From: Candidatus Marinacidobacterales bacterium
GTDB taxonomy: Bacteria > Acidobacteriota > Vicinamibacteria > Marinacidobacterales > SMYC01
DNA: 64,000 nucleotides
Assembly: GCA_965237955.1 (NCBI GenBank)
Contig: OZ250169.1
Coordinates: forward strand, 7,840,001-7,904,000
Direction of reading: 5' to 3'
The notes under the pieces were generated by a model. It worked only from the letters and a program-made list of their open reading frames with translations. It did no database searches and was not told the DNA's origin. Made by a program: the position numbers and the translations under genes. Shown here piece by piece: positions 22,913 to 44,841 of this stretch (positions within the stretch are counted from its first letter, which is position 1; the number at the start of each line of letters is the position of its first letter).

Positions 22913-23070
22913 AGAGGTGTCTAGGCTTGGTTGGCAATGGAAGCTCAAAGCCTGACAATCATTGGGATTCCTGTGGGTGCTTCCGCCATCAAGAGGTGTC
23001 TAGGCTTGGTTGGCAATGGAAGCTCAAAGCCTGACAATCATTGGGATTCCTGTGGGTGCTTCCGCCATCA
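22913..23070 (+). repeat. 79-bp tandem duplication
   Basis: 22913-22991 = 22992-23070. Confidence 0.95.
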
Positions 23071-23074
23071 AGTG

Positions 23075-24499
23075 ATGGAATGGACTCCTCCGCTGACATA
23101 GACGGCATCGATGTGCCAAAGTCAGTCGAATACGCATCGAAAAGGAGGAGTCCGAATGAAAGATACGACGATCGCTGTGGATCTTGCAAAGAACGTCTTC
23201 GAGATTGCCATCTCGGGAGAAGCGGGGAAGGTGTCCAAGCAACTCCGTGTGAGTCGACCCAAGTTGGTGTCGTTTTTTGCCAAACAGAGCGCTGCCACCG
23301 TGCTTCTCGAAGCCTGCGGCTCTGCTCACTTCTGGGCAAGGACGTTCCGAAGGTTGGGACACGACGTCGTCCTGCTCCCACCTCACCTCGTGAGGCCCTA
23401 TCGACGCGGGAGCAAGAACGACCGCGCCGACGCCAAAGCGTTGCTCGAGGCCTACAGGAACGAGGAGATTCTTCCCGTGCCCATTAAGTCCGTGCACCAG
23501 CACAGCCTCGCCGCGCTCCATCGCCTGCGCTCAGGATGGCTCTCCACACGGACCGCACGCATCAATGCCGTACGCGGGATCCTGCGCGAACTCGGATTCA
23601 TCATCCCAAAGGGCGCTCACTTCGTCGTGCCCGCCCTCTTCGAACTCGTCGAAGACGCTGATTCTGATTTGCCCGACGTGCTCCGTTCGCATCTCCGTGA
23701 TGCCTGCTCCGAGATTCGAGAACTCAAGGACAAGTGCGCTGGCATCGAGCACGAGCTCAAGGCGCTCACCAAGCAGCTTCCTGAAGTCCAACGACTTCTC
23801 GCCATTCCCGGCATCGGACTTCTGACCGCGACCGCCATCGTGGGCTTCGTCGGCGATCTTCGCCGCTTCCCATCGGGGCGCCGCTTCTCGAGCTACCTCG
23901 GCCTAGTTCCCAAGGAAAACTCCAGTGGCGACATTCGCCGCCTCGGACGCATCACCAAGCGTGGCGACTCCTACCTCCGTATGCTCCTCACCCAGGGCGG
24001 GCGCGCCGTGCTCCGCGCGGCGAACGTCAGTAAGAGCCCGCCCGACAAGCTCCGCGCCTGGGCTCGGAAGGTCCACCGCTCGCGGGGACACAACAAGGCC
24101 GTGATTGCTGTCGCCAACAAACTCGCCCGGATCGTCTGGGCCGTCTCCACCCGCGAGAGTGAATTCCAGTCGCCGATGGCCGCTTAGACTTAGAGGCTCC
24201 ACTTTCGTGTTTTCCTTTTTCCCTTCCAAAAGAGGCTGCGACGATACCCATCCAACTGATGGCGTACCGGTCGGACCGGCGCGGGGTCAAGCCGATAGCA
24301 ACACTGGCCCTAAGAGGTCGTTCAAAGTGATTGGCTCCTCGCGCGCGGATTTTCCATCATGGCCCGGAGCACCCAAGACGCTCCTCACTGAGGCCGAAGA
24401 TACGTTTGCAGTCTGACCCACTCGTCACGACGCGATGGATGCGCAGCTTCGATGGAAGATTTATTAAGAAAGGGGCTTGACTAGAGGAGTCCAGATATG
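23075..24499 (+). mobile_element. IS110 family, IS1111 type, copy 1 (transposase 23156-24187)
   Basis: DEDD motifs VDLAK/LEAC/KNDRADA and PKENSSG serine; subterminal IR TGGACTCCTC/GAGGAGTCCA; ~310-bp 3' NCR. Confidence 0.95.
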
Positions 24500-24837
24500 A
24501 ATTCCAGTCGCCGATGGCCGCTTAGACTTAGAGGCTCCACTTTCGTGTTTTCCTTTTTCCCTTCCAAAAGAGGCTGCGACGATACCCATCCAACTGATGG
24601 CGTACCGGTCGGACCGGCGCGGGGTCAAGCCGATAGCAACACTGGCCCTAAGAGGTCGTTCAAAGTGATTGGCTCCTCGCGCGCGGATTTTCCATCATGG
24701 CCCGGAGCACCCAAGACGCTCCTCACTGAGGCCGAAGATACGTTTGCAGTCTGACCCACTCGTCACGACGCGATGGATGCGCAGCTTCGATGGAAGATTT
24801 ATTAAGAAAGGGGCTTGACTAGAGGAGTCCAGATATG
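24162..24837 (+). repeat. 338-bp tandem duplication of the IS110 3' end and NCR
   Basis: 24162-24499 = 24500-24837. Confidence 0.95.
24230..24420 (+). ncRNA. Putative bridge/seek RNA in the IS1111 3' NCR (boundaries approximate; also at ~24568-24758 and in copy 2)
   Basis: Segments match the target (TCAAG 24287-24291, TAGCAACACT 24296-24305) and the donor junction (TTCCATCAT 24352-24360, AGATA 24398-24402). Confidence 0.8.
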
Positions 24838-26020
24838 TTGCTACGCGGCTGCGGGCAGTGGTACAGGTGCGGAAGAGACCGGGTTGCGCGCCCTAGTGAG
24901 CAGGAAAACCTCGATCCGCAACCACAAAGGAATCGTCGTCGCCAAGAAGATGTCTCGAAAGGTGAGCCGTCGCGTCGTCAGACCAGCCTGCATAGCCGGA
25001 GTTCGGATCTCACGTCCGAACTTCAGAGCTCCGTGCGGTCGGACGAAGTTGTAATAGCAACGGAGCAACTCCAGGTGCTCATCGAGCCTCTCCGTCGAGC
25101 GAGCGTGGGAAAGCGTTCGTCTCGAAAGGTATGCCGAGCTTTGCCGGATGGTCAGATTCAACCGCTCGATGAACGACGTGTTCAATGTCGAAGAGTCCTC
25201 GGAGTTATTGAGCGCGTCTTCGAATCGCCACGCGGCTCCGTGCAGCGCTCTCCGTTCGACCTTGATGATACGATCGTTCCTGCGAGTTTTGAGGACTTGG
25301 CCGTAGAGACACGCTGGCCCGAAGAAGCGACGGATGACCTTCTGGTAGAATTCGAATCCATCCGTAACGATCAAGGGAAGATGCTCGAAATTCATCCGCC
25401 TCGAAAGGTCGTGAAACAGAGCGTGAGTGTTCCGGTAGCTTCGCCTTCCCGTCACCGTCGATGGCCAGAGCCGAGACCAGACCTCGATCGTAACGAAGAC
25501 CCAACTCGGCGTCTTCTTGTCGCCCGCGAACGTGCGAATCTCGTCGGCTTGAAGCTCTTCGGCAGCGAAGCCGGCGATCCTTGTGTGGTTGAATTGACGA
25601 CACACTTGGGCTGCCTTCTCGAGCCAGCGGGCGACGGTGTTCCAGGCAATCCCTTCGATCCGGGAAATCGCGGAAATGCTGATACCCTCGACTCTGAGAG
25701 CGATGACCACATCGAAAGTAGCTCTTCGATGTTGGAGACGGTAGTAGGGCGTGCCTTTCGTCGAGGAGAACGTCTTTCCGCACTCGCCGCACCGGTATCG
25801 ACGGCGTTTCCCGGACCTGGTTCGGTAGAATCCGTGGCGAACGATGTTTCCGGAACTGACTTTGCCCCGCAACGGACATGCGGGATTGAGACATCTGCTA
25901 TTCTTCACTTCGGCTCGGCCCTGACGATGAGAGAACTGTGTCTTCAGAATTCTGGTTCAAACTCTAGCACGCGAACGGGTTACGCGGCAGCCACCAACAC
26001 TTCATGGCGGAAGCACCCAC

Positions 26021-26356
26021 ATGCGAGTGAAGTCGGTCATCGCCCGCGTGAGCCGCGAGGGCGACACGTACAAAGCGCTCGGTTTCGTCTTGAACGACGG
26101 GACGCCGCTCGAATCCGTCGAGGTGCGCGTCGATGACGGCCCGTGGCAAAAAGCGTCGATGGAGCCCTCGGCAGGCAAATATGCGTGGAAGCTCTTCACG
26201 TATATTTGGACGGGCGCAAGCCCTGGAGAGCATACGTTGGTCTCGAGGGCAACGGATACAGAAGGTCGGGTCCAGCCGGTTCGCGAAGACCTCGCGAACA
26301 AGAAGACTTTCTTGGAAGACAACTCCCAGCATCCGCGCACGATCATGATTTCCTGA
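26021..26356 (+). pseudogene. Sulfite-oxidase-like Mo enzyme, C-terminal dimerisation fragment
   Basis: VEVRVDDGPW..A, YAWKLF, GEHTLVSRATD..G..QP; begins at the IS1 end. Confidence 0.75.
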
Positions 26357-26374
26357 TCGACGCGCCCACCGCGT

Positions 26375-27067
26375 GTGTCGAAAAAGAACAAGGCGCCCTG
26401 GATTCTTGCGGGCGCCATCGTCGGTACGTTAGCTCTCTACGTGGCGCCCTATGGGCGCTACGTTGCCTATCCACTTTTGCTGCTCTCGACCTACGCCCAC
26501 GAAATGGGCCATGGGCTGACCGCCCTCCTGGTGGGGGGCACATTCGAGTCGCTCGTCATATTCGCAGACGGCTCGGGCGTCGCTTATTTGGGCATCCCGG
26601 ATAGCCGGCTCGCCCGCGCGGCCACGTCCGCGGGTGGATTGGTGGGACCTGCTCTTCTCGCGGCGGTGTTTTTCTGGCTCGCCAAGCGACCTAAAACCGC
26701 CCATGCCGGCCTCATGATCTTTGGGGTCGCGAGTCTCGTGGCGCTCGTGCTCGTCGTACGAAACCCTGTCGGATGGTTTCTCGTCGGCGCGCTCGGCGCC
26801 GGCTCGGTCGTCTTGGCGGTGAAGTCGAGCCCTCATGCGGCGCAAGTCGTCCTCGCGTTCATGGCCGTACAGCTGAGCCTCAGTGTCTTCTCGCGCGGCG
26901 ACTATCTCTTCACGCAATCGACCGGGGTCGGCCCGTCAGACGTCGCCCAGATGGCAGAGGCGCTCTGGCTCCCCTATTGGTTCTGGGGCTTCGTTTGCGG
27001 GGCCATTTCGGTGGCCGTATTGATGACGGGAATGCGCAGCTTCCTGCGAGCCGCGCCGAGCGGCTGA
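26375..27067 (+). CDS. M50B-like membrane metallopeptidase
   Basis: HEMGH, AGGLVGP, SD..MA; multiple TM helices. Confidence 0.85.
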   Translation: MSKKNKAPWILAGAIVGTLALYVAPYGRYVAYPLLLLSTYAHEMGHGLTALLVGGTFESLVIFADGSGVAYLGIPDSRLARAATSAGGLVGPALLAAVFFWLAKRPKTAHAGLMIFGVASLVALVLVVRNPVGWFLVGALGAGSVVLAVKSSPHAAQVVLAFMAVQLSLSVFSRGDYLFTQSTGVGPSDVAQMAEALWLPYWFWGFVCGAISVAVLMTGMRSFLRAAPSG

Positions 27068-27131
27068 GCTAAGACTCGGCGCGCGCAGCATGGTGCTTGC
27101 GCTGTTTACTGTTGGTAATATGTACGCATCC

Positions 27132-27653
27132 CGTCCTGTGCCAAAACTCGGCCCTCTTGAAATAGACCACAAATCAGCAACTTAGACGCCCTTGGAATCC
27201 GCCGACCCTTGGGCTGCGGGGCGAGCTGCGGGCAGCGGACTGCGCACCCGGAAGCCCCCGTCGTGTCCGCAAATACGAACGAACTCACCACCTCGGGCCT
27301 TTGGAAAGGTGCAAACTGCTGACCCGTTGGGCGTTCGAGTATTTGGACTAGACGGGCTCCTTCATCACTATTATAGTCGGCACCCTGGGCATCAGCGGGG
27401 GAACTGTCCGGCCCAGCAGGCTTCTGGTCAGGCTCCATCGCGGTAGGGTCGAGGGCTGGCACGGTGCTCCGTAGGCGCGGCCTATCTGTTTCTCCCCGTT
27501 TCCTGTGGGAGTGTCCGTAAGGTCAAAATACTCATGCGGCTTCCCTATGGTAGAAACGTAGCAACCCGCCAAGCCGTTCACGGGAGCGCACCATAGACAC
27601 TAAGCTGCTGATTTATGGTCTATTTCAAAAGGGCCGAGTTTTGGCACAGGACG
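27132..27653. mobile_element. Non-autonomous mosaic element bounded by inverted 'A' ends
   Basis: CGTCCTGTGCC...GGCACAGGACG; interior shared with 42226-42617, 20630-20890 and 1949-2124. Confidence 0.75.
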
Positions 27654-28462
27654 GGCTACCTATAGTCAACGGTTATAGCACCAACTACCCATTGGCTCAC
27701 TACTTCATTCTGGATCAGCTCGTCACGATGTTCCCCAACATCGACTCGTTGCGGCTTCTCCGGGCTCTGGGAGTACGCTACGTGGTCTTTCACCCCGACT
27801 ACGGACGCTACCCGGAGGTAAGGCATGCAGCGAGACGCTTCGAGCGCAGGCTGGCTGCCTACAGTGAAAATCTCGAGCTGGTCAAGGAGTTCGGCGACCG
27901 GGGTGTGTTCGACTCTGACCTCGGCGCTTTGGGTGGCGAACGCATCTACCGCATTTCGCCCCAGGAGCCTCCCTCAGTCAAGGTCGAGACAGACGATTGG
28001 CCTCGACTGGAACTGAACAGGTGGCGATGCGAGACGCTGAGCCGCCACAGCGGCTGCGAAGCGGCATTCGACGGGCGGCTCGACACCTACTTCACCACCA
28101 AGGTCGCGCAGACGAGTGGCGATTTCGTCCGGCTGCGACTTCCCCGGCCCGTGCGCCTGAGAGGCGTCTCGATCGTCATGGGGAGTTATTCTCACGAGTA
28201 TCCCCGCCGACTCGAGTTGTTCGCGGAGACCAAAGGCACGCTGCGACTACTCGCCGACTGGAAGGATCTCGACAGCGTAGAGTATCTCGGTGACCTGCTC
28301 GAATCGCCCGAGCGTGCCTCGATGGACTACAGCTTCGAGCCGGTCGAGGTCACTGTGTTGCTCGCCAGGATAGGTCCGGGCGTGGACGGTTCGCGACCAC
28401 TGCACCACCACGTTATGCACCCGTGGATTCTTCCAGAGATCGAGCTACTGCCTGCTCCTTGA
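27654..28462 (+). pseudogene. 5'-truncated protein with discoidin-like C-terminus
   Basis: IVNGYS, LGVRYVVFH, AFDGRLDT; begins at the repeat tip. Confidence 0.6.
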
Positions 28463-28724
28463 AGTGAACCTGGCATGTTGGAGGGGTCGGTCAGCCCGGC
28501 TCTACTCGACTTGATAATACCAGCGAAGTCTTCATCGACGCCGGCGTGTCCGAAACCTGGAACCGGTGGGGTGAGCGTGGAGTCGTAACAGCGCCGACTA
28601 CGAATTCACCGAAGCATCAGCCCACGGTCTGGGCAGCCTGACCCCGATCCAAGGAGGCCAGATTGACGCCGATTTATGTCTCGCGCCTCGCGAGTGGCTG
28701 GCCCGGCCCAATTGTCGAGTATCT

Positions 28725-29538
28725 CGTCGTGTCCGAAAATGCGAACGGAGCCGAAAGCTCGAATCCTGGAGGCGTTCTCGAGATTCGCGGAGACCAGCCG
28801 ACGCGGTACTGGCTCTGCGATAGGCGACCTCGAGCAGACCTCTCCTGCAGACCATCCGTTTCGTCCAGCTGGCGCGCCCGAACTCCTATGCGGCGTCGCG
28901 GTGGTAATAGCTGAGCAAGCCGCCCAATCGCTTACGACATCGCACCTTCCCGTGAGGACTGCCGACGCATTCTTCCGCTTCTAGCAACGCGTTCCCGAGC
29001 CCTTGATGGTTGCGCTCTCCGTGATAATGATGGATGAACTCAGCGACGGCACGGCGCAGCGATTGCTCACTGAAGAAGATCATCCGCTCCAAGCACTCGC
29101 TCTTGATCGACAAAACAAACCTTTCGACGTAAGCGTTCAGATTCGGCGAACGGTGCGGCAGCCGAATGACGTCCGTTCCGGCGTGCTCGAGTAAATCGCG
29201 AAACTCCGTGGTGAACTTCTTGTCGCGGTCCAGGATGAGGAATCGCTTGCCGCGCAGAAAGCCGTCGAATGGGTCGGTGAGATTCCGACCGACCTGCATC
29301 ATGAACGGGCCATCCGGCCCCGGAGTGATTCCGGCAATGTGCGCTTTTCGCGAAGACAGCTCGATGACGACGAGCACATAGTAGGTCACGAGCCTGCGAA
29401 CTGTGGCGACCTCGACGGTGAAGAAGTCGGTCGCAGCAACGGTTTCCCAATGGGCGGCGAGAAACGTGCGCCATGGCGTTCGCTCACTTCGCTCCGGCGC
29501 AGGCTCGATGCCATGTTCTCGCTGAATATTGGCGATGG
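28725..29538 (-). mobile_element. Second rve-type IS, right part (transposase fragment 28886-29538)
   Basis: ATDFFTVEV, ILDRD, YVERF, RLGGLLSYYHRDAA; 'C'-type end at 28725. Confidence 0.85.
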
Positions 29539-30357
29539 CGTCCTGTGCCAAAACTCGGCCTTTTTGAAATAGGCCATAAATCAGAAACTTAGTGTCTGTG
29601 TTTGCGACCGGGCCAAGGGCCGTGGGCTTTACAATCGTCTTGGGCGGGCGGGTCGTCACCATGCAGATGACCACCTAGTCGAGAGCGAATATCGAAGCGT
29701 GTGCCTGAAGCTGTTTTCACGCTACGCCGAGCGGGCCCACCAAGGGGCTACCGTCGCCGGCGACCATCTACGCGGCACGGCAGTAGTAGTTGAGAATGCC
29801 CTCAAGTCGCGCTTGCCGGCAGAGGTGTAATGAGCTCGTTGCCGAGACCTTGGTGGTTCCGTTCTGTGTGATAGTGCACTACGTATTCGGTTATCGCTGT
29901 CCGCAAGTGTCGCTCATTGAGAGGTACGAAGCGGTCGAAACACTCTCGACGTATGGAGAGAACGAATCTTTCCGCGTATGCGTTCAGATTCGGACTATTG
30001 GCGGGAAGGCGGAGGGCGTCCTGTGCCAAAACTCGGCCCTTTTGAAATAGGCCATAAATCAGCAACTTAGTGTCTGTGTTTGCGACCGGGCCAAGGGCCG
30101 TGGGCTTGACAATCGTCTTGGGCGGGCGGGTCGTCACCATGCAGATGACCACCTAGTCGAGAGCGAATATCGAAGCATGTTCCTGAAGCTGTTTCCACGC
30201 TACGCCGGTCGAGCCCGCCGAGGGGCTACCGTCGCAGGCGACAATCTACGCGGCACGGCAGTAGTAGTTGAGAATGCCCCCAGGTCGCTCTCGCGACACG
30301 ATGGGGCCAGTGTCATTCGCGCTTGCCGGCAGAGGTGTGAGGAGCTCGTTGCCGAGA
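29539..30357 (-). mobile_element. Two tandem right-end fragments of the 'A' IS
   Basis: Tips at 29539 and 30017, each followed by sequence matching 34799 onward. Confidence 0.85.
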
Positions 30358-31095
30358 TGTGCCTTCTATTTATTCATCCGCGCGCCCCGAACTTGATTAG
30401 TCTCCGGTCTGCCAGCACCATGCCGGCATGATTTCGTCGTTTGTTCGCGCTCTCATCTCTGCCTTCAAGGCTCGTCGCAAGCTAGCTCTTGAGAATGTCG
30501 CTCTTCGGCAGCAGCTCGCCGTTCTCCGTCGTTCGGTGAAACGGACGCGGCTCTCGAATGTCGACCGCGGGTTTTGGGTGCTGTTGCGTAGAATCTGGAC
30601 TGACTGGGAGAGCGTCCTCGTCATCGTGAAACCTGAGACGGTCGTCCGCTGGCACCGTTGTGGGTTCAGACGATATTGGGTGTGGAAGAGTCGACGGCGT
30701 AGGCCCGGACGACCAGGCGTCGCTCCCGAAATACGTGAGCTGATACGGAACATGAGCAGGGCCAACCCTCTCTGGGGAGCTCCCCGCGTGTATGGCGAGC
30801 TGGCAAAGCTGGGCATCTCCATTTCCCAGGCCGCCGTCTCCAAGTATATGGTTCGCCATCGCACGCCACCGTCCCCTACTTGGCGGAGCTTTCTTGATAA
30901 TCATGCAAACGACTTGGTGTCGCTCGACTTTTTCACTTTGCCGACCGCAACCTTCAGAGTTCTGTTCGTCTTCATCGTCCTTCGCCACGACCGTCGCCGT
31001 ATCGTTCATTTCAATGTCACCGAACATCCTTCTGCTGAGTGGACGGCGCAGCAAATGGTCAATGCTTTTCCATGGGACACGGCGCCTCGGTACCT
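30358..31095 (+). mobile_element. Third rve-type IS, left part (TGT end 'E'; transposase fragment from 30428)
   Basis: LENVALRQQL, VKPETVVRWHR, NPLWGAPR, SLDFF. The same left end recurs at 14382, 32271, 62001 (+) and ~6239, 42790 (-). Confidence 0.85.
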
Positions 31096-31353
31096 CGTCC
31101 TGTGCCAAAACTCGGCCCTTTTGAAATAGACCATAAATCAGCAGTTTAGTGTCTGTGTTTGCGACCGGGCCAAGGCGGCGCAAGGGTCGTGAGTTCGTTT
31201 GTGTTTTTGGACACGACGGGCAACACCGCGCTCCAAGAGATGAGCGAATCCGCGACAACGAATCCAGGAAGTCCACAACGGACGCCACAGGAAACCCGGT
31301 ACAGCAGGAAACCCGGAACTCGGGAAACCCAGAGAGTGAAGGGAGAGCCTATA

Positions 31354-32005: not shown

Positions 32006-32008
32006 GAT

Positions 32009-32666: not shown

Positions 32667-34091
32667 CATATCTGGACTCCTCTAGTCAAGCCCCTTTCTT
32701 AATAAATCTTCCATCGAAGCTGCGCATCCATCGCGTCGTGACGAGTGGGTCAGACTGCAAACGTATCTTCGGCCTCAGTGAGGAGCGTCTTGGGTGCTCC
32801 GGGCCATGATGGAAAATCCGCGCGCGAGGAGCCAATCACTTTGAACGACCTCTTAGGGCCAGTGTTGCTATCGGCTTGACCCCGCGCCGGTCCGACCGGT
32901 ACGCCATCAGTTGGATGGGTATCGTCGCAGCCTCTTTTGGAAGGGAAAAAGGAAAACACGAAAGTGGAGCCTCTAAGTCTAAGCGGCCATCGGCGACTGG
33001 AATTCACTCTCGCGGGTGGAGACGGCCCAGACGATCCGGGCGAGTTTGTTGGCGACAGCAATCACGGCCTTGTTGTGTCCCCGCGAGCGGTGGACCTTCC
33101 GAGCCCAGGCGCGGAGCTTGTCGGGCGGGCTCTTACTGACGTTCGCCGCGCGGAGCACGGCGCGCCCGCCCTGGGTGAGGAGCATACGGAGGTAGGAGTC
33201 GCCACGCTTGGTGATGCGTCCGAGGCGGCGAATGTCGCCACTGGAGTTTTCCTTGGGAACTAGGCCGAGGTAGCTCGAGAAGCGGCGCCCCGATGGGAAG
33301 CGGCGAAGATCGCCGACGAAGCCCACGATGGCGGTCGCGGTCAGAAGTCCGATGCCGGGAATGGCGAGAAGTCGTTGGACTTCAGGAAGCTGCTTGGTGA
33401 GCGCCTTGAGCTCGTGCTCGATGCCAGCGCACTTGTCCTTGAGTTCTCGAATCTCGGAGCAGGCATCACGGAGATGCGAACGGAGCACGTCGGGCAAATC
33501 AGAATCAGCGTCTTCGACGAGTTCGAAGAGGGCGGGCACGACGAAGTGAGCGCCCTTTGGGATGATGAATCCGAGTTCGCGCAGGATCCCGCGTACGGCA
33601 TTGATGCGTGCGGTCCGTGTGGAGAGCCATCCTGAGCGCAGGCGATGGAGCGCGGCGAGGCTGTGCTGGTGCACGGACTTAATGGGCACGGGAAGAATCT
33701 CCTCGTTCCTGTAGGCCTCGAGCAACGCTTTGGCGTCGGCGCGGTCGTTCTTGCTCCCGCGTCGATAGGGCCTCACGAGGTGAGGTGGGAGCAGGACGAC
33801 GTCGTGTCCCAACCTTCGGAACGTCCTTGCCCAGAAGTGAGCAGAGCCGCAGGCTTCGAGAAGCACGGTGGCAGCGCTCTGTTTGGCAAAAAACGACACC
33901 AACTTGGGTCGACTCACACGGAGTTGCTTGGACACCTTCCCCGCTTCTCCCGAGATGGCAATCTCGAAGACGTTCTTTGCAAGATCCACAGCGATCGTCG
34001 TATCTTTCATTCGGACTCCTCCTTTTCGATGCGTATTCGACTGACTTTGGCACATCGATGCCGTCTATGTCAGCGGAGGAGTCCATTCCAT
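32667..34091 (-). mobile_element. IS1111-type copy 2 (transposase 32979-34010), inserted in the right IR of an IS1 deletion derivative (~32465-34127)
   Basis: Identical protein to copy 1; same target AAG-TG-TTGCTAC. Confidence 0.95.
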
Positions 34092-34138
34092 CACTTGATG
34101 GCGGAAGCACTTGATGGCGGAAGCACCGAATAGAGTCC

Positions 34139-34798
34139 ATGCCGACGGCAAGAACCAGCGAGAGCCACCCACTGCGCATCACGGCTATGACCCTGGGCGA
34201 CGGCCGTGGCCGGATCGGCTTCTCGCAGTGCCCCGGTAGGATCGATCACTACGCAATATCCGGGCCCTGGAAGCGGGATCTCGACACCGACCTCGACGCG
34301 ATTCAGCGCTGGGGAGCGACTGCGGTGGTCAGCCTGATCACCCACGAAGAGATCCCCGATCTGAAGGTGCACGATCTCCCGAGGGCGGTTCGAGACCGGC
34401 ACATGGAGTGGTGGCATGCCCCGATTCCCGACGGAGAGGCACCGGAACAGGACTTCGAGCACGCCTGGAAGGCCACCGGCGAGTCCATCAGGAACCGGCT
34501 GCGGCTCGGCTTCGACGTGCTGCTCCACTGCCGGGGTGGTCTGGGACGCGCCGGGACCATCACAGCCCGCCTGCTGGTGGAGTTGGGCGTGCAACCGGAC
34601 GATGCGATCCGCCGCGTGCGCGACGCCCGCGAATGGACCATCGAGAACGGCTCCCAGCTGGCTCACGTGAGGCAGTGTTCGGCACAAGCACCATCGGTTC
34701 CATCCCGGACCGCGGACGACATCCACGACCGGGCGCTCGGGGCCTTCCTCGGTCTGGCGGTGGGCGACGCGGTCGGCACGACGCTCGAATTCTGCTCC
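34139..34798 (+). pseudogene. CDKN3-like Cys phosphatase fused to ADP-ribosylglycohydrolase (truncated)
   Basis: HCRGGLGRAG; DRALGAFLGLAVGDAVGTTLEF cut at tip 34799. Confidence 0.88.
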
Positions 34799-36226
34799 CG
34801 TCCTGTGCCAAAACTCGGCCCTTTTAAAATAGGCCATAAATCAGCAACTTAGTGTCTGTGTTTGTGACCGGGCCAAGGGCCGTGGGCTTTACAATCGTCT
34901 TGGGCGGGCGGGTCGTCACCATGCAGATGACCACCTAGTCGAGAGCGAATATCGAAGCGTGTTCCTGAAGCTGTTTCCACGCTACGCCGGTCGAGCCCGC
35001 CGAGGGGCTACCGTCGCCGGCGACAATCTACGCGGCACGGCAGTAGTAGTTGAGAATGCCCCCAAGTCGCTCTCGCGACACGATGGGGCCAGCGTCATTC
35101 GCGCTTGCCGGCAGAGGTGTGAGGAGCTCGTTGCCGAGACCTTGGTGGTTCCGTTCTGTGTGATAGTGCACTACGTATTCGGTTACCGCTGTGCGCAGGT
35201 GTCGCTCACTGAGAGGTACGAAGCGGTCGAGACACTCTCGACGTATGGAGAGAACGAATCTTTCCGCATATGCGTTCAGATTCGGACTATTGGCGGGAAG
35301 GCGCAGGGGCTTCACGCCTGAATCTCTCAACAGCCCACGTACCGCCTCGGTGAATAGCGGGTCCCGGTCGTGGATGAGGTATCGCTTGCCAAGGAGGAAA
35401 CCATCCCACATGTCAGTGAGGTTTCTTGCCACCTGCTTCATCCACTCCCCGTTGGGGTCCGACGTTATCCCACCGATGCACACGCAGCGAGTGGCGATAT
35501 CGATGACAAACAGGACATGGTAGCGGACGAGCCCGAACGGGTTCACAACCTCGACGGTGAACAGGTCTGTCGCAGCGATGGCGCCCCAATGAGCCTTGAT
35601 GAAGGTGCTCCACGACATGCTCTTGCCCCGCTCCGGCGCAGGCGCGATACCGTGCTCGGCGAGGATCCTCTTGATAGTGTTGCGTCCGAGTTCATGTCCT
35701 AGGTTCTTGAGTGCGCCTCGCAGGCGCGTATATCCCCACGTCGGGTTCTCCTGCGCCACGCGCACAATGAGCTCACGGATGTCCTTCGCCGTCGGAGGCC
35801 GGCCTGGGCTCCGGTTCTTGCTGCCATCGTACTTGGCTGCGATGAGGCAGCGGTACCAACGCAGAAGCGTAGCGGGTGTGGCAACGGACGCAATCTGGGC
35901 CAGCGCCTCGCGGCCCAAAGCCTGGGCCTTGACGGCGAGCCTGCGCCGCTCGTCGTCCGAGAGCCTGAGACGCTTGCCCCGAAGCCCGGCTCGGAGCACA
36001 CGGTTCTCCTCTTGCAGGTAGTCGATCACATCCTGCTGCTGGCGGTTGACCCAGCCAGCTAGAACGAGCAGTAGGAATTGCACGTGGTACGTCATCATGG
36101 ATCTGAAGATAACACCCTCGGGCCAGACGATTGTAAAGCCTACGGCCCTTGGCCCCGGCGCAAACACAGACACTAAGCTGCTGATTTATGGTCTATTTCA
36201 AAAGGGCCGAGTTTTGGCACAGGACG
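34799..36226 (-). mobile_element. Complete rve-type DDE IS ('A' element; transposase 35028-36098)
   Basis: ~100-bp imperfect TIRs starting CGTCCTGTGCCAAAACTC; ATDLF/HDRD/AERF triad; RLGGILNYY. Confidence 0.9.
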
Positions 36227-36509
36227 GGGAGCGGGCCGCTGACAAGGCCGTGCAGCGTCGGAAAAGAAGCCATCCGGGAGGCCCAAGAATCGAGCTCGGG
36301 GCTACCGCGGCGTAGCTGGCCTAGCCCGTTCTGGTCCAGGTGCGGCCCTGGCCTTATGGATATCCCGTCCTGTGCCAAAACTCGGCGCTTTTGAAATAGA
36401 CCATAAATCAGCAGCTCAGTACCTGTGTTTGCGACCGGACCAAGGGCCCATCGATAGGCGATCTTCTTTTATGCGGATCACAACGAGGCATGGCATACTC
36501 TGTAAGCGT

Positions 36510-37037: not shown

Positions 37038-37368
37038 CCGGATGGGGCACGCGGGCTGCACGGTGCCGCCGTGGTCGAGGACGGCATTGATGTCCGGGGA
37101 GTCAGACCGCAGGGGTTGCTTGAGTTGCACCTGTTGGGCTTCCGGCCTATCGCGGATGATGTCGATGACAAGAAGCTGCGAACGTGCAAATAAAACCCTG
37201 TGTTGCACGTTCGCATGTGGGAGGCTGGGTGTACGGCATTTTCACCCGCCTTCCCTCACAAGGGCGTCGTTGGGTCTTCGTCATACCCGCGACGCTATCA
37301 AGGGGCGCGGCGTCTCCCTGTTTCTCCTTAGGCGCTGCGCTCCTACCCCCTCTTGAAAGGAGAGTCGA

Positions 37369-37656
37369 ATGATGAAACGTGAGGAACGCGATCTACAGCA
37401 AGTCCTTGTAGGTGACGGTGTGGAATCGGCTGTGTTCGACAAGTCTCGAGCAATAGAACACAAGGTCGAACCGGGGACAGGGTTCGATCACACTCCGGGC
37501 GAGTCCCTTTGGGAAACCGAGTTTCACAATTATGTGCGCCCGGCCGACGGCAACGTGTGGGTGCAGATTAGCAAGAGCAAGGCTCATGCTTGGCTGTCTC
37601 ATCATGGCAAACACGAACACGTAAACGATGATGAGTTCAATAGGATTCTCATCTAA
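37369..37656 (+). CDS. Hypothetical protein (phage-like context)
   Basis: 95-aa ORF with strong RBS AAAGGAG. Confidence 0.5.
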   Translation: MMKREERDLQQVLVGDGVESAVFDKSRAIEHKVEPGTGFDHTPGESLWETEFHNYVRPADGNVWVQISKSKAHAWLSHHGKHEHVNDDEFNRILI

Positions 37657-37747
37657 GCCAGAGCATGAGGGGGGGACCCTGTTCGTGCATATAGAGGTTC
37701 CCTACAACGCTTTGGGGCTTGATTCCATAAACGGGGGTATCTGAGGG

Positions 37748-39187
37748 GTGCTGGACAGCCAGTTGAGGTCGTTTCAACGGACGTGGATTCGACGTTCTCT
37801 GGCTCCTGGTATTGACTTGGGAGTCCTGAGTATTCCGCGTGGAAACGGAAAAACGGCGTTAGCAGCCCACGTTGTTGCGCTGGCGATGACACCTGGCTCC
37901 AGTCTCTACAAGCCCAACAACGAGGTCGTGTTGATTAGCGGTAGCACGGCTCAAAGCAGGTTCGCTCACAAGTTTGTGAAACGGGAGCTTGAAGAACTGG
38001 GCCTGTACCGTTGGAGCTCGTCTCTAACTTCGATGGGCGCTCGGGACACTAAGAACGGCGTCGAGCTCCGGGTGATGTCGAGCAATCCGCGAACGGCTCA
38101 CGGGCTTGTCGGTGTGTCTATGGTTTTCTGCGACGAACCTTCAAGTTGGGAAAACCAAGCGGGCTCCGATATGTGGGACGCGATTCTCACGGCGCAAGGG
38201 AAGCCGTCGAGCAAACTCCGTGTTCTGGCCGTTGGCACTCGTGCGCCTTCGCGGCCGGGCTCATGGTGGCTTGCGCTTATCGACAAGGGCTCGGGCGGGA
38301 GCGTGTACGTTCAAGAGCTCCGCGGCCGTCTCGATCGCTGGGATTCATGGGCAGAGATTAGACGGTGCAATCCGCTCACTGAAATCTCGTCGGAGTTTCG
38401 CAAGAAGCTGTTGCAAGAGAGAGACGCAGCAAGAAAAGACGAGAGGTTGAAAGCCAGATTTTTGAGTTTTCGGTTGAACCTGGAAAGCACCGACGAATCC
38501 ACAATGCTGCTTACCGTTCCCGAGTGGCGAAAGTGCGAGGGCCGCGAGCTCGGGCCGGACTGCGGTGCGCCAGTGGTCGGCGTCGATTTGGGCTCGGGTA
38601 GGTCGTGGAGTGCAGCCACCGCCGTTTTTCCTGGTGGGCGTGTTGAAGCGGTCGCGATCACAAGCGGGCTTCCCGATATCGCAGCACAGGAAAAAAGAGA
38701 CGTTGCGGTGAGAGGAGCCTATCAACGGCTTGTTGATGAGGGCTCGTTGTTGGTAGACCGTGGCAGGAATATTCCACGGGTTTCCGTTCTGGCCGATGAA
38801 GTTCTTAGGCGATGGCCGGGGCTCGCGTTCTTGGTGTGCGATAGGTTTAGACTCCCCGAGCTCCTGGACGCCTTCGCCGGCAAGGTTCGCATTTTCCCAA
38901 GGGTAACTCGATGGTCGGAAAGCTCCGCCGATATACGCGCTGTACGTGCGCTTGCCTTGGATGGCGAGCTCAGTGTTGAGCCTTCGTCTCGGGCGTTGAT
39001 GCGCGTTGCGCTGGCGGCCGCGACGGTGCAGAGCGACACATCCGGGAATTGCAGACTTATCAAGGCTGGTACAAACCAAACCGAGCGAGATGATCCAGCA
39101 CATGCTTTTGTTCTAGCGGCGGGCGCGTTGTCGAGGTTTCGGAAGTCCGCTCCTCCGGTCCTTCATATCGTGAGGCGGACGGGTTGA
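37748..39187 (+). CDS. Phage terminase large subunit
   Basis: Walker A PRGNGKT, Walker B FCDE, nuclease VGVDLG and DD..A. Confidence 0.85.
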   Translation: MLDSQLRSFQRTWIRRSLAPGIDLGVLSIPRGNGKTALAAHVVALAMTPGSSLYKPNNEVVLISGSTAQSRFAHKFVKRELEELGLYRWSSSLTSMGARDTKNGVELRVMSSNPRTAHGLVGVSMVFCDEPSSWENQAGSDMWDAILTAQGKPSSKLRVLAVGTRAPSRPGSWWLALIDKGSGGSVYVQELRGRLDRWDSWAEIRRCNPLTEISSEFRKKLLQERDAARKDERLKARFLSFRLNLESTDESTMLLTVPEWRKCEGRELGPDCGAPVVGVDLGSGRSWSAATAVFPGGRVEAVAITSGLPDIAAQEKRDVAVRGAYQRLVDEGSLLVDRGRNIPRVSVLADEVLRRWPGLAFLVCDRFRLPELLDAFAGKVRIFPRVTRWSESSADIRAVRALALDGELSVEPSSRALMRVALAAATVQSDTSGNCRLIKAGTNQTERDDPAHAFVLAAGALSRFRKSAPPVLHIVRRTG

Positions 39188-39456
39188 GGCGTTCCCGTGA
39201 TAGGCGCTGGCAAGCGGGCTGGCAGCGGACAAGGCGCAAGGCGAAGGATAGAGACGATTGGCGCTGCCAGCGGTGCGGTCGCGTAGGCGGAAGCGTCGGC
39301 GGAAGATTGGAAGTTCACCACTTGCGGCCGGTGAAGGATGGCGGGGGGGACGAGCTCTCGAACCTCACTGTTTTGTGTAGAAGCTGCCATATCGACGGCC
39401 ATCGTTCCGAACCCAAAGGGAAAGCAGAGTGGAGGCGGTGGCTTCGTGCGTGTTGA
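39184..39456 (+). CDS. HNH endonuclease
   Basis: RD.WRCQRCG, LEVHH, NL..LCRSCH; 4-nt overlap with TerL. Confidence 0.88.
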   Translation: MRRSRDRRWQAGWQRTRRKAKDRDDWRCQRCGRVGGSVGGRLEVHHLRPVKDGGGDELSNLTVLCRSCHIDGHRSEPKGKAEWRRWLRAC

Positions 39457-39506
39457 GGTTGCACATTTTTTGTGCATGTGCACATTTTTTGTGCTATCGT
39501 CTTTTC

Positions 39507-39773
39507 ATGACCGCAAGCCAAAAATCGACCATCAAGCTGAGCTCCGCTCGGCAGAAGTTGAACGAATTACTAGCCATCGAAGAGCGCTCAGAAGAACAGA
39601 ACACCGAGCTTGAAACCCTGACGGATTCGGTGCAATCGCTCGAACCCGAGCTCAGGGCGAGCATCGCGGCCGCAGGTGAGGATGTAGTCGAGACGACGGT
39701 CGAGACTCCAGAGGGCCGCGAGCTCCGGTCGCTCATCGACAAGGCGAGCATCGGCGGGATCGTCTCTCACTGA
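39507..39773 (+). pseudogene. Probable major capsid protein N-terminus (coiled scaffold-like region), truncated
   Basis: Coiled-coil N-terminus after TerL-HNH; cut by an 'A' IS fragment. The call relies mainly on context. Confidence 0.55.
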
Positions 39774-39778
39774 GGTGG

Positions 39779-40154
39779 CGGTACCAGCGCAGAAGCGTAG
39801 CGGGTGTGGCAACGGACGCAATCTGGGCCAGCGCCTCGCGGCCCAAAGCCTGGGCCTTGACCGCGAGCCTGCGCCGCTCGTCGTCCGAGAGCCTGAGACG
39901 CTTGCCCCGAAGCCCGGCTCGGAGCACACGGTTCTCCTCTTGCAGGTAGTCGATCACATCCTGCTGCTGGCGGTTGACCCAGCCAGCTAGAACGAGCAGT
40001 AGGAATTGCACGTGGTACGTCATCATGGAGCTGAAGATAACACCCTCGGGCCAGACGATTGTAAAGCCTACGGCCCTTGGCCCCGGCGCAAACACAGACA
40101 CTAAGCTGCTGATTTATGGCCTATTTCAAAAGGGCCGAGTTTTGGCACAGGACG
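39779..40154 (-). mobile_element. Left-end fragment of the 'A' IS
   Basis: Matches ~35850-36226. Confidence 0.9.
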
Positions 40155-40161
40155 AGGTCCG

Positions 40162-40291
40162 CGTCGTGTTCAAAAAACACAAACGCGTTGCCAAGCCCTT
40201 GATGGTGGCGCTCTCCATGATAATGATAGATGAACTCGGCGACGGCCCCGCGCGCAGGTCTTAGAGTTCGTTTGTATTTTTGGACACGACG
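40162..40291. mobile_element. 130-bp MITE with inverted 'C' ends
   Basis: CGTCGTGTTCAAAAA...TTTTTGGACACGACG enclosing a piece of the 28886 transposase. Confidence 0.75.
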
Positions 40292-40298
40292 CGCTCGA

Positions 40299-41495
40299 CT
40301 AGGCGGGCTTGCTCCACCACCATCTCGGCGCACGCCGCGCGCCGCCGGCCAAGAGCGTATCCAGCAAGAGCATGGGTCGTCTCAGAAACGACCCCATGAG
40401 TCGGAAGCGGATCTTGTTCACCCAACGCGGGTAGCCCCGGTTGTAAGGACAGACTCTCAAGCAAATGGAACAATCGGTGACTTGCTTCACCCAAAAGCTG
40501 AAGCATTTTTCGGCGTCGGTGGTCCACTTCTTGACGCCGCGGATGTTGGATCGGTTGTATATCCGCTTCGATGGGTCGTCCCAGGTAATCGCCTGAGGGG
40601 GACACTCCGCGCTGCAGCGTCGGCATGTGTTGCAGAACTCTTTTACACCGAACCTCTTCGGCCGGTCGTGACCGAGCGGCAGATCGGTAAACACCTTTCC
40701 GATTCGTAAGCGCGGTCCCAGCTCTTCGGTGATGAGCAGACCGTGGCGGCCGTATTCGCCGAGTCCCGCCTTGATCGCGTAAGGAATGCTAGCCGCAGTG
40801 TCGTTCATACTGGCGTAGGCCCGATACCCCAGGTTGCGGATGTATTGCGCGAGTGCCAGCAAAGTCACTGCGTCTTTAGAATAGCCGACCCCGGTCGCGG
40901 TCCCGCTGAGAGCCGAGGGGACGGTCTTGAGGAGGTCATGATCCATCTCATGCACCACCACGATGACCGAGGTCATCCCCTCCGGGAGATCCATGGGCGC
41001 CTCGCCCTCGGTGGCCCGGTTATATTTGTGGCTATAGACCCATCGTTCGTCGTAATAGGTGATACCTGTCAGATCGGCCCCCATTAGCTTGGCGACCTTC
41101 TTGATCTCCCGACTCATCTCCTCCGGGTCGCGGATCTCGCGCTGCTCGCTCGCGCCCTCACGGTGTGCGGTCAGATAGTCGAGAAAACCCTCGCGTCGAT
41201 CTTCGTGAAGAAGCCTCTCGGCGAAAAAGTCTGCGACGTGCCAACCTGCGTTACGGAGGGCGAAGTCCTTTTGGTGATAGCCATCGACGTGACGCCATTC
41301 CTCCAAGGGGAGACGATAGGATTGATAGAACTTATCGGTGTCTTTCGACCGAATGGTGGAATCCCAGAAGGAACGGCTGAAGATGTCCTCTCTTTGATTG
41401 AAGCGGCGGAAATCTTCGCTGATTTCGAACCGGGCGTCCTCGTCGGTGGCACAAGGGCGTCGGCACGTCGTGCATTTCGAGTGGTGTTTGCTCAT
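40299..41495 (-). CDS. rdhA: Reductive dehalogenase family protein (cobalamin, 2x4Fe-4S; no TAT signal)
   Basis: GADLTGI..D.RWVY, IRNLGY.A, AGLGEYGR, FC..C..C...CP and C..C...CP. Confidence 0.88.
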   Translation of the reverse strand: MSKHHSKCTTCRRPCATDEDARFEISEDFRRFNQREDIFSRSFWDSTIRSKDTDKFYQSYRLPLEEWRHVDGYHQKDFALRNAGWHVADFFAERLLHEDRREGFLDYLTAHREGASEQREIRDPEEMSREIKKVAKLMGADLTGITYYDERWVYSHKYNRATEGEAPMDLPEGMTSVIVVVHEMDHDLLKTVPSALSGTATGVGYSKDAVTLLALAQYIRNLGYRAYASMNDTAASIPYAIKAGLGEYGRHGLLITEELGPRLRIGKVFTDLPLGHDRPKRFGVKEFCNTCRRCSAECPPQAITWDDPSKRIYNRSNIRGVKKWTTDAEKCFSFWVKQVTDCSICLRVCPYNRGYPRWVNKIRFRLMGSFLRRPMLLLDTLLAGGARRAPRWWWSKPA

Positions 41496-41900
41496 CTCAG
41501 GAATCGACTCCCGTTTCGCGACGGTAGGTGCTTCCGCAATTAAGTGTTGGCGGCCAGACCGTAACCGGTCTGCGTGCTAGAGTTTGAACCAGAATTCTGA
41601 AGACACAGTTCTCTCATCGTCAGGGCCGAGCCGAAGTGAAGAATAGCAGATGTCTCAATCCCCGTCGTGTCCAAAAACACGAACGAACTCAAGACCTGCA
41701 TCAGCCGGAGCGTTTCGGATAGACGCGTCTACGCTTGCTTCGCCAAGGGAAGCTGGAATGCTCGGTCATGAGCACGCCGATCCAACCCTGGGACGTTCTT
41801 GGTCGTCGCGGTAGAGGTATTTGAATGCTAGTGTCAGTTGGCCCAGGTGTGTCGGCGAACGCCATCGCCATTAATAAGGATGTCGGCGTGCACACAGACA

Positions 41901-42016
41901 CTGCCTTGGTGCATAAATACAGGTAAGTCATTGATTCCATTGACTCTGCTATTTTTGCACCAAAAACGTAACCTGCTGATTCCTTTAGAGTTGTCCAGAG
42001 CTATGCACCAAGGCAG
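41901..42016. mobile_element. MITE 'D' copy 2
   Basis: Reverse complement of 1664-1778. Confidence 0.8.
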
Positions 42017-42225
42017 GTCGTTGGTGGTGAGGTCTGGACTGATCAGGGTCCAGGTCGTTCCCATGTCCGTGCTGCGATGGACGAACTGGCTCCCGAAATA
42101 GAGCGCCCCGTCGTGCGGGTCGATCGCCATCCCTGGGTTCCAGTTGAACCGGAGCTTGGTCGCCTCGGGATGGGCCGGCACGATGGATTTGCGCTCGCCG
42201 GTTTGAAGATCGGACCGGACGACCC
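42017..42225 (-). pseudogene. Internal fragment of a BNR/VPS10-like glycosyl hydrolase
   Basis: RFNWN...HRSTDMGTTWTLISPDLT between two mobile ends. Confidence 0.75.
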
Positions 42226-42617
42226 CGTCCTGTGCCAAAACTCGGCCCTTTTGAAATAGACCATAAATCAGCAGCTTAGTGTCTATGGTGCGCTCCCGTG
42301 AACGGCTTGGCGGGTTGCTACGTTTCTACCATAGGGAAGCCGCATGAGTATTTTGACCTTACGGGCACTCCCACAGGAAACGGGGAGAAACAGATAGGGC
42401 GCGCCTACGGAGCACCGTGCCAGCCCTCGACCCTACCGCGATGGAGCCTGACCAGAAGCCTGCTGGGCCGGACAGTTCCCCCGCTGATGCCCAGGGTGCC
42501 GACTATAATAGTGAGGGAGCCTCATCGGTGGGCCTTTTATTGGCCCGGTCGCAAACACAGACACTAAGCCGGTGATTTATGGTCTATTTCGAAAGGGTCG
42601 AGTTTTGGCACAGGACG
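42226..42617. mobile_element. Non-autonomous element with inverted 'A' ends
   Basis: Left ~290 bp is the reverse complement of ~27365-27653. Confidence 0.78.
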
Positions 42618-42861
42618 GGGACCCCGAATCGCCGACATCGCCTCCGACACGCCCCAGAACTGGGGCTCGCCACAAGTCGATGACGATCGAAACGGCCCGG
42701 CGCGCCAGTCTTGAGTTCGTTTGTGTTTTTGGACAGGACGCCGGAGACTAATCAAGTTCGGTGCGCGCGGATGAATAAATAGAAGGCACAGCCATGCTAC
42801 GATGGGCTCGCATTTGTTTCCCGCGCGACGTTGTTGTAAGAGCAGGCTGAACTAAGCTGTC

Positions 42862-44073
42862 ATGCCAGATGTCAATCCAGAGATTTTGCGTTGGGCCCGC
42901 GAGACTGCGGGACTTGAGTCGGAGGAAGCGGTGGAGAAGCTGCAGCTCCGAGCAGCACGCGGCCAATCCGCTCTTGAGCGGTTAGCGGCGCTGGAGGCTG
43001 GTGACTATAAGCCGTCTCGGACCATGCTCGTAAGGATGGCGAGGCACTATCGACGCCCGCTCCTTGCTTTCTACTTGTCCGCTCCGCCTCGGCGCGGTGA
43101 CCGCGGCCAGGATTTCCGAACACTTCCGGAAAGCCACTCAGGTGCTGACGACGCACTGCTCGATGTTCTGATTCGCGATGTCCGGGCCCGTCAGAGCATG
43201 GTTCGGGCGCTAATGGAAGATGAAGAGGAGGCTGAACTGCTTCCCTTCATCTCATCCTTGAAGCTTTCCGACTCGCCGTCAATTTTCGTGAAGTCGATTC
43301 GTTCAACACTTCAGGTTAGCGTAGAAGATTTCCATTCTCAGCCGTCTCCACAGAAGGCCTTCGGTCTACTACGTCGCCAAGCTGAGAGCGTTGGCGTTTT
43401 CGTGCTCTTGATGGGCAACGTTGGTACTTACCACACAGCCATAGATCTTGAGACGTTCCGAGGGTTCGCACTGGCGGACGACGTTGCCCCGTTCGTCGTC
43501 ATCAACGATCAGGATTCAAGGGCCGCGTGGTCATTCACCCTCGTGCACGAACTGACGCATTTGTGGCTCGGACAAACCGGGGTCAGCGGCTATTTTGCAG
43601 AGCTCGCAGTCGAACGGTTCTGCAACGATGTCGCAGGCGAATTCCTTCTCCCAGCGGATGAGCTGCAGCAACTGCAGCTTGACGATAGACCCGATGAAGC
43701 AACACTCCAGGAGCGGATTGGTGAATTCGCTGCGGGAAGGAACGTGAGTGGATCGATGGTTGCCTACAGCCTGTATCGGAAGCGGATGATTGAGCAAGAA
43801 GTCTGGAAGCGACTCAGCGCGGCATTTCGCACTTTTTGGTCACGAGAACGGACATCCCAGCGAGACCGCGCGCGCGATGAAGAAGGCGGGCCGAACTATT
43901 ACGTTGTACGACGACATCGTCTCGGTCGCGCGTTGACTGATCTGGTCGGCCAGATGGTTACGGCAGGAGCGCTCACGTCCACTAAAGCAGCTAAGGTTCT
44001 CGGAGTCAAGCCCAAGCAGGTCCAGGTCCTGCTCGACACGGGCGAGCAGGGCGGTAAGCGGTCGCTGGCGTAG
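42862..44073 (+). CDS. XRE HTH + ImmA/IrrE metallopeptidase, second divergent copy
   Basis: VNPEILRWARE; FTLVHELTH; ERFCNDVA. Confidence 0.9.
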   Translation: MPDVNPEILRWARETAGLESEEAVEKLQLRAARGQSALERLAALEAGDYKPSRTMLVRMARHYRRPLLAFYLSAPPRRGDRGQDFRTLPESHSGADDALLDVLIRDVRARQSMVRALMEDEEEAELLPFISSLKLSDSPSIFVKSIRSTLQVSVEDFHSQPSPQKAFGLLRRQAESVGVFVLLMGNVGTYHTAIDLETFRGFALADDVAPFVVINDQDSRAAWSFTLVHELTHLWLGQTGVSGYFAELAVERFCNDVAGEFLLPADELQQLQLDDRPDEATLQERIGEFAAGRNVSGSMVAYSLYRKRMIEQEVWKRLSAAFRTFWSRERTSQRDRARDEEGGPNYYVVRRHRLGRALTDLVGQMVTAGALTSTKAAKVLGVKPKQVQVLLDTGEQGGKRSLA

Positions 44074-44082
44074 AGACCACAA

Positions 44083-44586
44083 GTGCACTTGCTTGACTCT
44101 AACGTTCTCATCGACGCGAACCGCGACTATTATTCTATCTCTCGGGTACCAGAGTTCTGGAATTGGCTCGTCGATCTCGGCGCGAGGGAACTTGTCAAGA
44201 TACCACTGGAGATGTTTGAGGAGATCAAAGACGGCGACGATGATTTGGGAGAATGGATTCGGCAAGACGAAATCAAAGGTGCACTTCTGCTTCACGAGGA
44301 GGCTGATGTTGCGTTGGTTTCTCTGGTCACCAACGAAGGCTATGCACCTGATCTTACCGACGACGAGATAGAAAAGATTGGTCGTGACCCATTCCTAGTT
44401 GCGTACGGCCTCGGTAACGAAAACGAGCGCTGTATTGTTACTACGGAGACTTCCAGACCGTCTCGACGCCGCGCGAACCGACATGTCCCAGATGTTTGCA
44501 GTGGTCTGGGTGTTCGCTGTTGCAACACCTTTGAGTTCGTCCGCGAGTTCGACTTCACAACAAATTGGAAGCTGGGGCGGCGGTGA
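44083..44586 (+). CDS. DUF4411 PIN-domain protein
   Basis: LLDSNVLI, FW.WL, DPFLVAY, VTTE, VPDVC. Confidence 0.9.
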   Translation: MHLLDSNVLIDANRDYYSISRVPEFWNWLVDLGARELVKIPLEMFEEIKDGDDDLGEWIRQDEIKGALLLHEEADVALVSLVTNEGYAPDLTDDEIEKIGRDPFLVAYGLGNENERCIVTTETSRPSRRRANRHVPDVCSGLGVRCCNTFEFVREFDFTTNWKLGRR

Positions 44587-44841
44587 AACGTGCTCCGATG
44601 CTGAATCCCGTCCTGTGCCAAAACTCAGCCCTTTTGAAATAGACCATAAACCAGCAGCATAGTTCACTTGATGGCGGAAGCACCGCACAGGACGAAGTCC
44701 GAATCGGAACTAGTTCATCTCCCTAACTATATATCCAAGAACTCGGCGAAACTGTCCGAACCATCGGACTGAATGGCGTATCGGAAACGGAGTTCGTCTT
44801 TGTCGTCACCACAGCTATCGTCCTTGATCTCAAGCGGAACG

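Follow-up and report, generated by a model that had tools for sequence, protein, structure and literature searches.

Tandem duplications anchored at the core of an IS1111-group IS110 element in a Candidatus Marinacidobacterales genome

Elements of the IS1111 group of IS110 combine subterminal inverted repeats with a long downstream non-coding end (PMC11208160), in which the guide complementary to the top strand is reported to come first (PMC11187229). For IS621, the strand is described as being cut after the core, with the right arm held on the serine (PMC11208158), and a handshake rule is given whereby the guide extension matches the junction formed after exchange (PMC11208158; PMC13626964). 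Half-matches reportedly suffice for IS621, and the target scar is resealed 34-fold less (Xie et al., 10.64898/2026.08.31.748434); CazIS110-1 is described as transferring the top strand only, with right-donor transfer to the new left arm ~10-fold faster than the second step and tandem repeats in 3/96 colonies (Sun et al., 10.1101/2025.10.25.684509). Hu et al. (10.64898/2026.08.14.744561) report 468 non-coding repeat units beside IS110 transposases with a one-sided donor match, find the unmatched boundary of partial circles no nearer to the guide than chance and 3' extensions that share homology with the flanking DNA, and describe the asymmetry of the tandems as unresolved in origin. Here we analysed a 64,000-bp stretch (hereafter the window; G000:C1:7840001-7904000) of a Candidatus Marinacidobacterales bacterium genome assembled as a single contig of 8.13 Mb (98% complete, 6.2% contaminated). 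It carries an IS1111-group element flanked by tandem duplications that break at or beside its two-base core. Such duplications, found in this genome and in two relatives, retain one true right arm and acquire a foreign left arm together with its core. They are real and enriched at the core, and probably biological.

The element, its guides and four breakpoints in the window

Judging from its sequence, the element (Table 1) belongs to the IS1111 group of IS110, is intact, and has entered an inverted repeat of an IS1-like element. Its recombinase has the family's DEDD RuvC domain and a Tnp domain with the catalytic serine, and inspection of the translation located residues D9/E52/D89/D92 and SSG 256-258; transposase relatives of 90-98% identity occur in five assemblies titled Candidatus Marinacidobacterales. 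Copy 1 is bounded by perfect 10-bp subterminal inverted repeats (TGGACTCCTC / GAGGAGTCCA) lying 6 and 4 bases inside the cores, as is characteristic of the IS1111 group. The host element is named only IS1-like because its transposase scores 84.4 bits against NF033558, short of the IS1 family cut-off of 100.

Insertion takes place between AAG and TG-TTGCTA, in the inverted repeats of the IS1-like element and its miniatures. Left-end and right-end matches number 25 each in the genome, either set including one from a 91% relative, and the target arm is kept at 24 of the 25 left ends, the last being that relative with its different target. Twenty-three target sites are occupied, 6 of the preferred TTGCTA variant are empty, as are 90 of other variants, and TTGCTA is the variant found next to each of the 18 outer right ends, as the guide predicts. 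Copies of a 93-95% element variant (L030, L031, L033, L034, L036, L046) occupy sites outside the IS1-like repeat that have little in common beyond AG-TG and TTGCT.

The long non-coding region downstream of the transposase contains predicted target and donor guides in the IS1111 order, with a hairpin between the target guides (fold z = -2.45). The first guide segment is complementary to the top strand, the second to the bottom strand, an order that equals that of IS621 when read on the strand opposite the transposase, and each right guide runs on by two bases matching the post-exchange junctions. If the IS621 cut lies after the core and the serine holds the right arm, the core should travel with the left arm. 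Normal insertions at 53 metagenome loci of relatives had the donor's TG at the left junction in 44 of the 47 cases that could be read, and CG, CC or CA at the right junction in 25 of 25 (TG in none), a pattern also followed at L031 and L046; the core thus travels with the incoming arm. Together with the guide orientation, this geometry makes the element's right end the right-donor arm (RD) and the IS1-like arm retained at the left junction the right-target arm (RT). By analogy with IS621, RD and RT would be the serine-linked arms.

The original prediction had placed four rearrangement breakpoints at this core, and all four are present (tandems were called by Tandem Repeats Finder and an exact scan). 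The 338-bp duplication is an exact tandem with the junction CCAGATA-TG-AATTCC at 24497-24500, and a second set of predicted guides lies 338 bp beyond that of copy 1. The same junction recurs at G000:1134011, at an unrelated target site; both forms match the consensus and carry no private marker, as would fit either movement as a unit or two origins. The 16-bp duplication likewise breaks at the TG, with a GTG overlap, and lies in a 2.6-kb segment present three times in the genome, for which reason we count it as one event. The 79-bp duplication is also exact, with its junction (CCATCAAG|AG-GTG) at 22993/22994 and a 2-bp AG overlap; here the break falls at the edge of the core, whose TG is replaced by the partner's AG. 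The orphan half inverted repeat does end at the core, as proposed, but it is a plain join to a cut end of the D4 repeat, without duplication. Its core came from the true site, since a D4 variant with the same preceding letters continues TTTC and not TTCA. The window cases are therefore not four independent events of one kind, the 16-bp tandem having been copied with its segment.

Table 1. Features of the window (window coordinates)
Feature	Position	Strand	Remarks
IS1111-group IS110 element, copy 1	23073..24835	+	donor-derived TG to outer right end
IS1111-group element, copy 2, inside IS1-like miniature element	32669..34093	-	identical to copy 1
IS110 recombinase, 343 aa	23156..24187	+	NF033542 308.9 bits (cut-off 140); PF01548 + PF02371
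Rest of IS1-like host element with its other inverted repeat; 355-aa open reading frame 24841-25908	24836..26017	-	NF033558
Target arm kept at left junction (RT in guide orientation); outer part of IS1-like inverted repeat	23055..23072	+	
Predicted bridge/seek RNA guides, copy 1	24296..24406	+	sequence matches to target/donor junctions
Predicted target guides, copy 1	24296-24303 and 24323-24331	+	
Predicted donor guides, copy 1	24352-24359 and 24398-24406	+	
79-bp exact tandem: flank and outer 18 bp of IS1-like inverted repeat, target-arm anchored	22913..23072	+	
338-bp exact tandem: last codons and whole right non-coding end, donor-arm anchored	24160..24837	+	2-bp TG overlap
16-bp exact tandem of target arm	34092..34126	-	3-bp GTG overlap
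Orphan target arm (half inverted repeat) and core	44665..44684	-	joined to cut D4 repeat end; no duplication

A 1433-bp rve-type element (34797-36229) has D4 as its long terminal inverted repeat, and many gene fragments are also bounded by D4. Allowing one mismatch, the genome holds ~502 D4 ends and ~203 ends of another repeat, D18, clustered at ~0-1.25, 2.0-2.5, 2.75-3.75 and 7.3-8.13 Mb; in the window both repeats fall within 10050-61978. The D4-to-D4 segment 32207-34800 is present again at 2972256 and 3010037. Of 133 IS1-like tips, 6 (window 44675-44694 and five other sites) come directly after D4 base 10, and 17 share one 8-bp context. The D4, IS1-like and IS1111 elements thus form a three-tier nesting.

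Core-anchored junctions in this genome and its relatives

Duplications are present at 4 of the 18 right ends of the genome (338 bp at two unrelated targets, an array of 396-292-396, and 475 bp) and at 5 of its 24 left junctions (79 bp, 16 bp in the three copies of the 2.6-kb segment, and one array). This left-junction array, 61-62-61-61-48-48-62, occupies the same insertion site in a fourth copy. When other genomes were searched, the class recurred as right-end duplications in two of the five relatives examined, at 1 of 30 near-complete copies in one (L023, 284 bp) and at 4 of 9 in another (L028-L031, 19 to 793 bp); in the remaining three none was found. No tandem was found at the 53 metagenome loci, which are short and rarely resolve repeats. 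One further locus flagged as a duplication (L047) was dropped as an empty target upstream, and a histogram of inverted-repeat truncations was not used, as it counted array copies repeatedly; the unpublished genome G027 likewise underlies none of our claims.

These searches yielded 17 distinct duplication junctions, 9 in this genome, 1 in the L023 genome and 7 in the L028-L031 genome. In guide-RNA orientation the right arm is intact in every one, and 12 keep the element's right end. The core dinucleotide is that of the partner in all 17, and its second base is invariably G (local G share 0.29): TG in 11 junctions and CG, AG and GG in 2 each, both CG cores agreeing with the element's donor guide, which reads CG. 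No duplication starts at any of the 189 opposite arms, and foreign DNA on an opposite arm was seen in only one distinct non-duplication join, present in two copies. All 11 target-arm duplication junctions lie beside an occupied site, with none at 96 empty target sites.

The original prediction implied that breakpoints in a larger set would be enriched at the core, and in this genome and the two relatives they are. Among the 15 unique exact tandems of this genome (period of at least 40, overlap of at most 5 bp), 6 involve the arms of this element, 2 involve a second IS110, 3 lie at the end of an rve element and 4 elsewhere; the exact scan, which returned 88 rows genome-wide, missed the 396- and 475-bp units. 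Since the 42 occupied junctions (24 left, 18 right), taken with 2 bp on either side, cover ~3e-5 of the genome, breakpoints at the core exceed chance.

The 338-bp tandem does duplicate the RNA module, with all four predicted guide segments in both copies. The suggestion that duplication could allow the guides to diversify fared less well: the four segments are unchanged in 23 of the genome's 24 copies, and none is changed in duplicated copies. The sole altered copy has a 1-nt insertion in the donor guide, outside any duplication; in relatives, guide differences run between genomes, and one L028 duplicate has lost 6 nt from the target-loop hairpin. Guide diversification by duplication is thus possible in principle but was not observed.

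Candidate mechanisms and the evidence weighed

The recombinase is the likely cause of the core-enriched breakpoints, as had been proposed. We think it probable that the duplications arise as by-products when this RNA-guided enzyme of the element itself transfers a single strand at an occupied site. Such chemistry matches the top-strand-only transfer, the fast transfer of RD to a new left arm and the by-product tandems of CazIS110-1, as well as the poorly resealed scar of IS621. The nick would fall directly past the two-base core, on the strand opposite the transposase gene, with the recombinase staying bound to the right arm; this arm would then be joined to a wrong 3' end located 16-793 bases along the sister copy on the same strand, and replication would fix the tandem. 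At a right end, such an event would duplicate the guide-RNA region, either as an aborted end transfer or as a partial circle resolved in place, and at a left junction it would duplicate host flank; repeated rounds could produce arrays of mixed unit length. The target, element ends, guide matches, constant retained arm, partner-derived core and arrays are read from the sequences themselves, and the cut strand, serine linkage and resolution by replication would be as in the IS621 and CazIS110 work. We also considered rolling-circle amplification of one small circle, which is disfavoured by the mixed unit lengths of both arrays.

The partner in these joins had been predicted to be a TG pseudo-site. 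This part did not hold, as TG is present in only 11 of 17 partners, just the G is constant and likeness to the guide arms is weak. Partners matched ~3 of 7 guide-arm positions, with the core matched in 11 of 17, and their resemblance to natural incoming arms was weak (50 matches where 37.5 would be expected; p = 0.005 for the best of two). Neither handshake pairing of the partners (12 against 7.5 expected, p = 0.055) nor their likeness to the kept arm (p = 0.085) was established, and no partner showed complementarity to the core together with an entire arm, as specified by Xie et al., a full half-match being present only at the true site. The wrong 3' end might be a weak recombinase cut at a pseudo-site or a paused end of repair synthesis, with a slight lean towards the former. 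The weak partner-arm likeness and the second IS110 favour the cut, and the 16-, 19- and 29-bp units, short range and strict side favour the paused strand. In one conceivable scheme, flap capture, which we hold to be possible but doubtful, events would start after copy-out, with the right arm as a blocked 5' end. A host polymerase would extend the 3' end past the bound right arm by strand displacement, and the recombinase would ligate the paused end to its own flap whenever there is guide pairing at the second-last base.

In a rival reading, the off-target bridge recombination of the original prediction would be a full reciprocal exchange of the true site with a TG pseudo-site on sister chromosomes. 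Breakpoints at the core, weakly guide-like partners and the existence of core-anchored deletions are all in keeping with it, and the second IS110 indicates that the other arm can be retained. A reciprocal exchange should, however, leave both arms, whereas the 17 duplications keep one and the other is kept in a single non-duplication join; the events are one-sided and polar, with none on the other side, 6 of 17 partners lack TG, and guide matching is low. We therefore regard reciprocal exchange as improbable.

As a sign that core junctions are real, one core-anchored deletion junction found here is also present in L113 and L115, from two further genomes. At G000:C1:3087635, 7995396 and 3137926, and at L113, L115, L116 and L129, target arms or right ends are joined to an opposite arm shortened by 3 bp, 7 bp or ~750 bp, the last common to three genomes; these joins are possibly scars of imprecise excision or repair.

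Several observations weigh against one-strand transfer by the recombinase. A TG overlap, equally usable by slippage, is present in 11 of 17 junctions; G is missing from 5 of the 13 target-arm joins without duplication and from one right-end join (L129); and three tandems inside relatives' copies (20, 41 and 172 bp) lie off the core. The other boundary of the 79-bp tandem is 2-4 bp from an older join of two other repeat families, at 22910/22911. Flank-side duplications were found in this genome only, with none at 20 non-canonical target arms in the five relatives. The off-core tandems, the GTG overlap of the 16-bp tandem and the 88 short-tandem rows genome-wide would suit ordinary replication slippage or template switching that uses microhomologies of 2-4 bp and involves no recombinase, and slippage may explain the 16-bp tandem alone. 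As a general explanation it is very unlikely, judging from the strong core enrichment, the lack of duplication at all 96 empty sites bearing the same repeat, and overlaps of merely 0-1 bp at the 292-, 284-, 61- and 29-bp junctions.

Further adverse points concern the assemblies. The L028 and L030 arrays carry mosaic micro-deletions resembling consensus errors. In contigs assembled from five runs, which differ from the window by several letters and probably represent other strains, the 338-bp junction was not seen (X1, X2, X5, X7; bin 24464-24547 uncovered), nor was the 16-bp tandem (X1, X2, X3, X5; single-copy reference), although such contigs can show presence only; X3 contigs have an empty target at the 16-bp locus. 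Among the window junctions, read-derived support is confined to the 79-bp one, which is present without any difference in an independently built contig of run X5, the short side of which measures only 28-30 letters. An unrelated rve-type element ending in GCACA also has end-anchored partial tandems (954, 964 and 860 bp at G000:C1:691003, 692340 and 803396), so that element ends attract such junctions whatever the enzyme. All this would be expected of an assembly or consensus artefact at repeat boundaries, element ends being branch points of the graph, in a long-read metagenome assembly with this level of contamination. Such an artefact leaves unexplained the one-sidedness, the constant G and partner cores that obey the rule of normal insertions, and it sits poorly with the independent X5 contig and with the recurrence of the class, with new breakpoints, in two other assemblies; we deem it improbable. 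The duplicated copies at L028 and L030 show many microhomology deletions and right-end patches, attributable to error-prone synthesis or to a consensus over mixed reads.

The second IS110 of the genome (425 aa, G000:C1:5882274-5889016) keeps its left arm and takes a foreign right arm, which also counts against the proposed polarity. The polarity is hence not universal, and we rejected a right-arm rule for all IS110. In both elements the kept end is the element's 3' end, which by guide orientation is RD in the IS1111 element and the left-donor arm (LD) in the second. The latter has its RNA region upstream and a CT core, and is arrayed as four tandem copies; there the true right end is joined to pseudo-sites with core AT, located 137 bp beyond the left end and 56 bp within it. 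Its target comprises the codons of a C-terminal motif, NWFEELERLVP (sites 3409549, empty, and 4336980, 5209093 and 5882430 on G000:C1). The left end re-creates a near copy of this motif followed by a stop (NWHEELLRLVPVN), so the host protein would stay almost intact after insertion.

Elsewhere in the window, a mutagenesis cassette (49614-55756) comprises lexA, imuB-like and dnaE2-like genes. Interspersed with the mobile fragments are genes for IrrE-like peptidases (DUF4411 being present in one), for two proteins with TIR domains and for a reductive-dehalogenase-like Fe-S protein, as well as a TPR array (12051-13229, 42862-44586, 46504-47295, 61183-61956, 40299-41495 and 18152-20404).

Implications and comparison with described systems

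At the base level, these junctions give a simple, testable rule, a true right arm joined to a foreign left arm with its core, which bears on the asymmetry left open in the account of Hu et al. and on the fate of the unsealed target arm after copy-out. Under this rule, bridge-edited sites should acquire short duplications of the flank on one side, and assays of insertion sites would not detect them. If flap capture were true, bridge recombinases would be local duplication engines that cut no second site, copying tens to hundreds of host-flank bases, always on one side, and forming an uncharted class of bridge-editing by-products.

With respect to target choice, IS4321/IS5075 are reportedly IS1111 elements that target the Tn21 inverted repeats (Partridge and Hall 2003). 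Like them, the present element targets the terminal repeat of another transposon, here that of an IS1-like element and its miniatures; our search of the accessible literature found no paper devoted to an IS1111 element targeting IS1-like repeats.

As for the duplications, the findings are mostly anticipated by preprints of 2025-2026, to which they add a testable refinement. The tandem RNA module of ISPpu9/ssr9 (PMC12288879) is comparable, and there, too, stray core dinucleotides are described as usable by recombination; ssr9, however, carries end boxes of its own and is mobile as a unit, whereas the units found here have one true end only. With this module and the units of Hu et al. as precedents, the right-end duplication of the 338-bp type is of a known kind. 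IS621 and CazIS110-1 share with our proposal the one-strand chemistry, the unsealed target scar, RD transfer to the new left arm and whole-cargo tandem by-products, but short flank duplications anchored at the right-target arm do not figure in the accessible parts of those papers. The same search found no paper devoted to such duplications, nor the base-level rule, although figures S5-S10 of Hu et al. may already show them. A further close parallel is that study, in which partial tandem repeats at IS110 ends are one-sided as here; 12 of our 17 junctions are partial units of the kind it defines, with one true donor end and an unmatched boundary. Hu et al. score donor arms only and label the kept arm LD, whereas after guide orientation the kept arm here is right-donor or right-target; their label may reflect transposase orientation, as the word IS1111 is absent from the main text. 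What differs here from that account are host-flank duplications on the target arm, resolved at the base level, with the core supplied by the partner.

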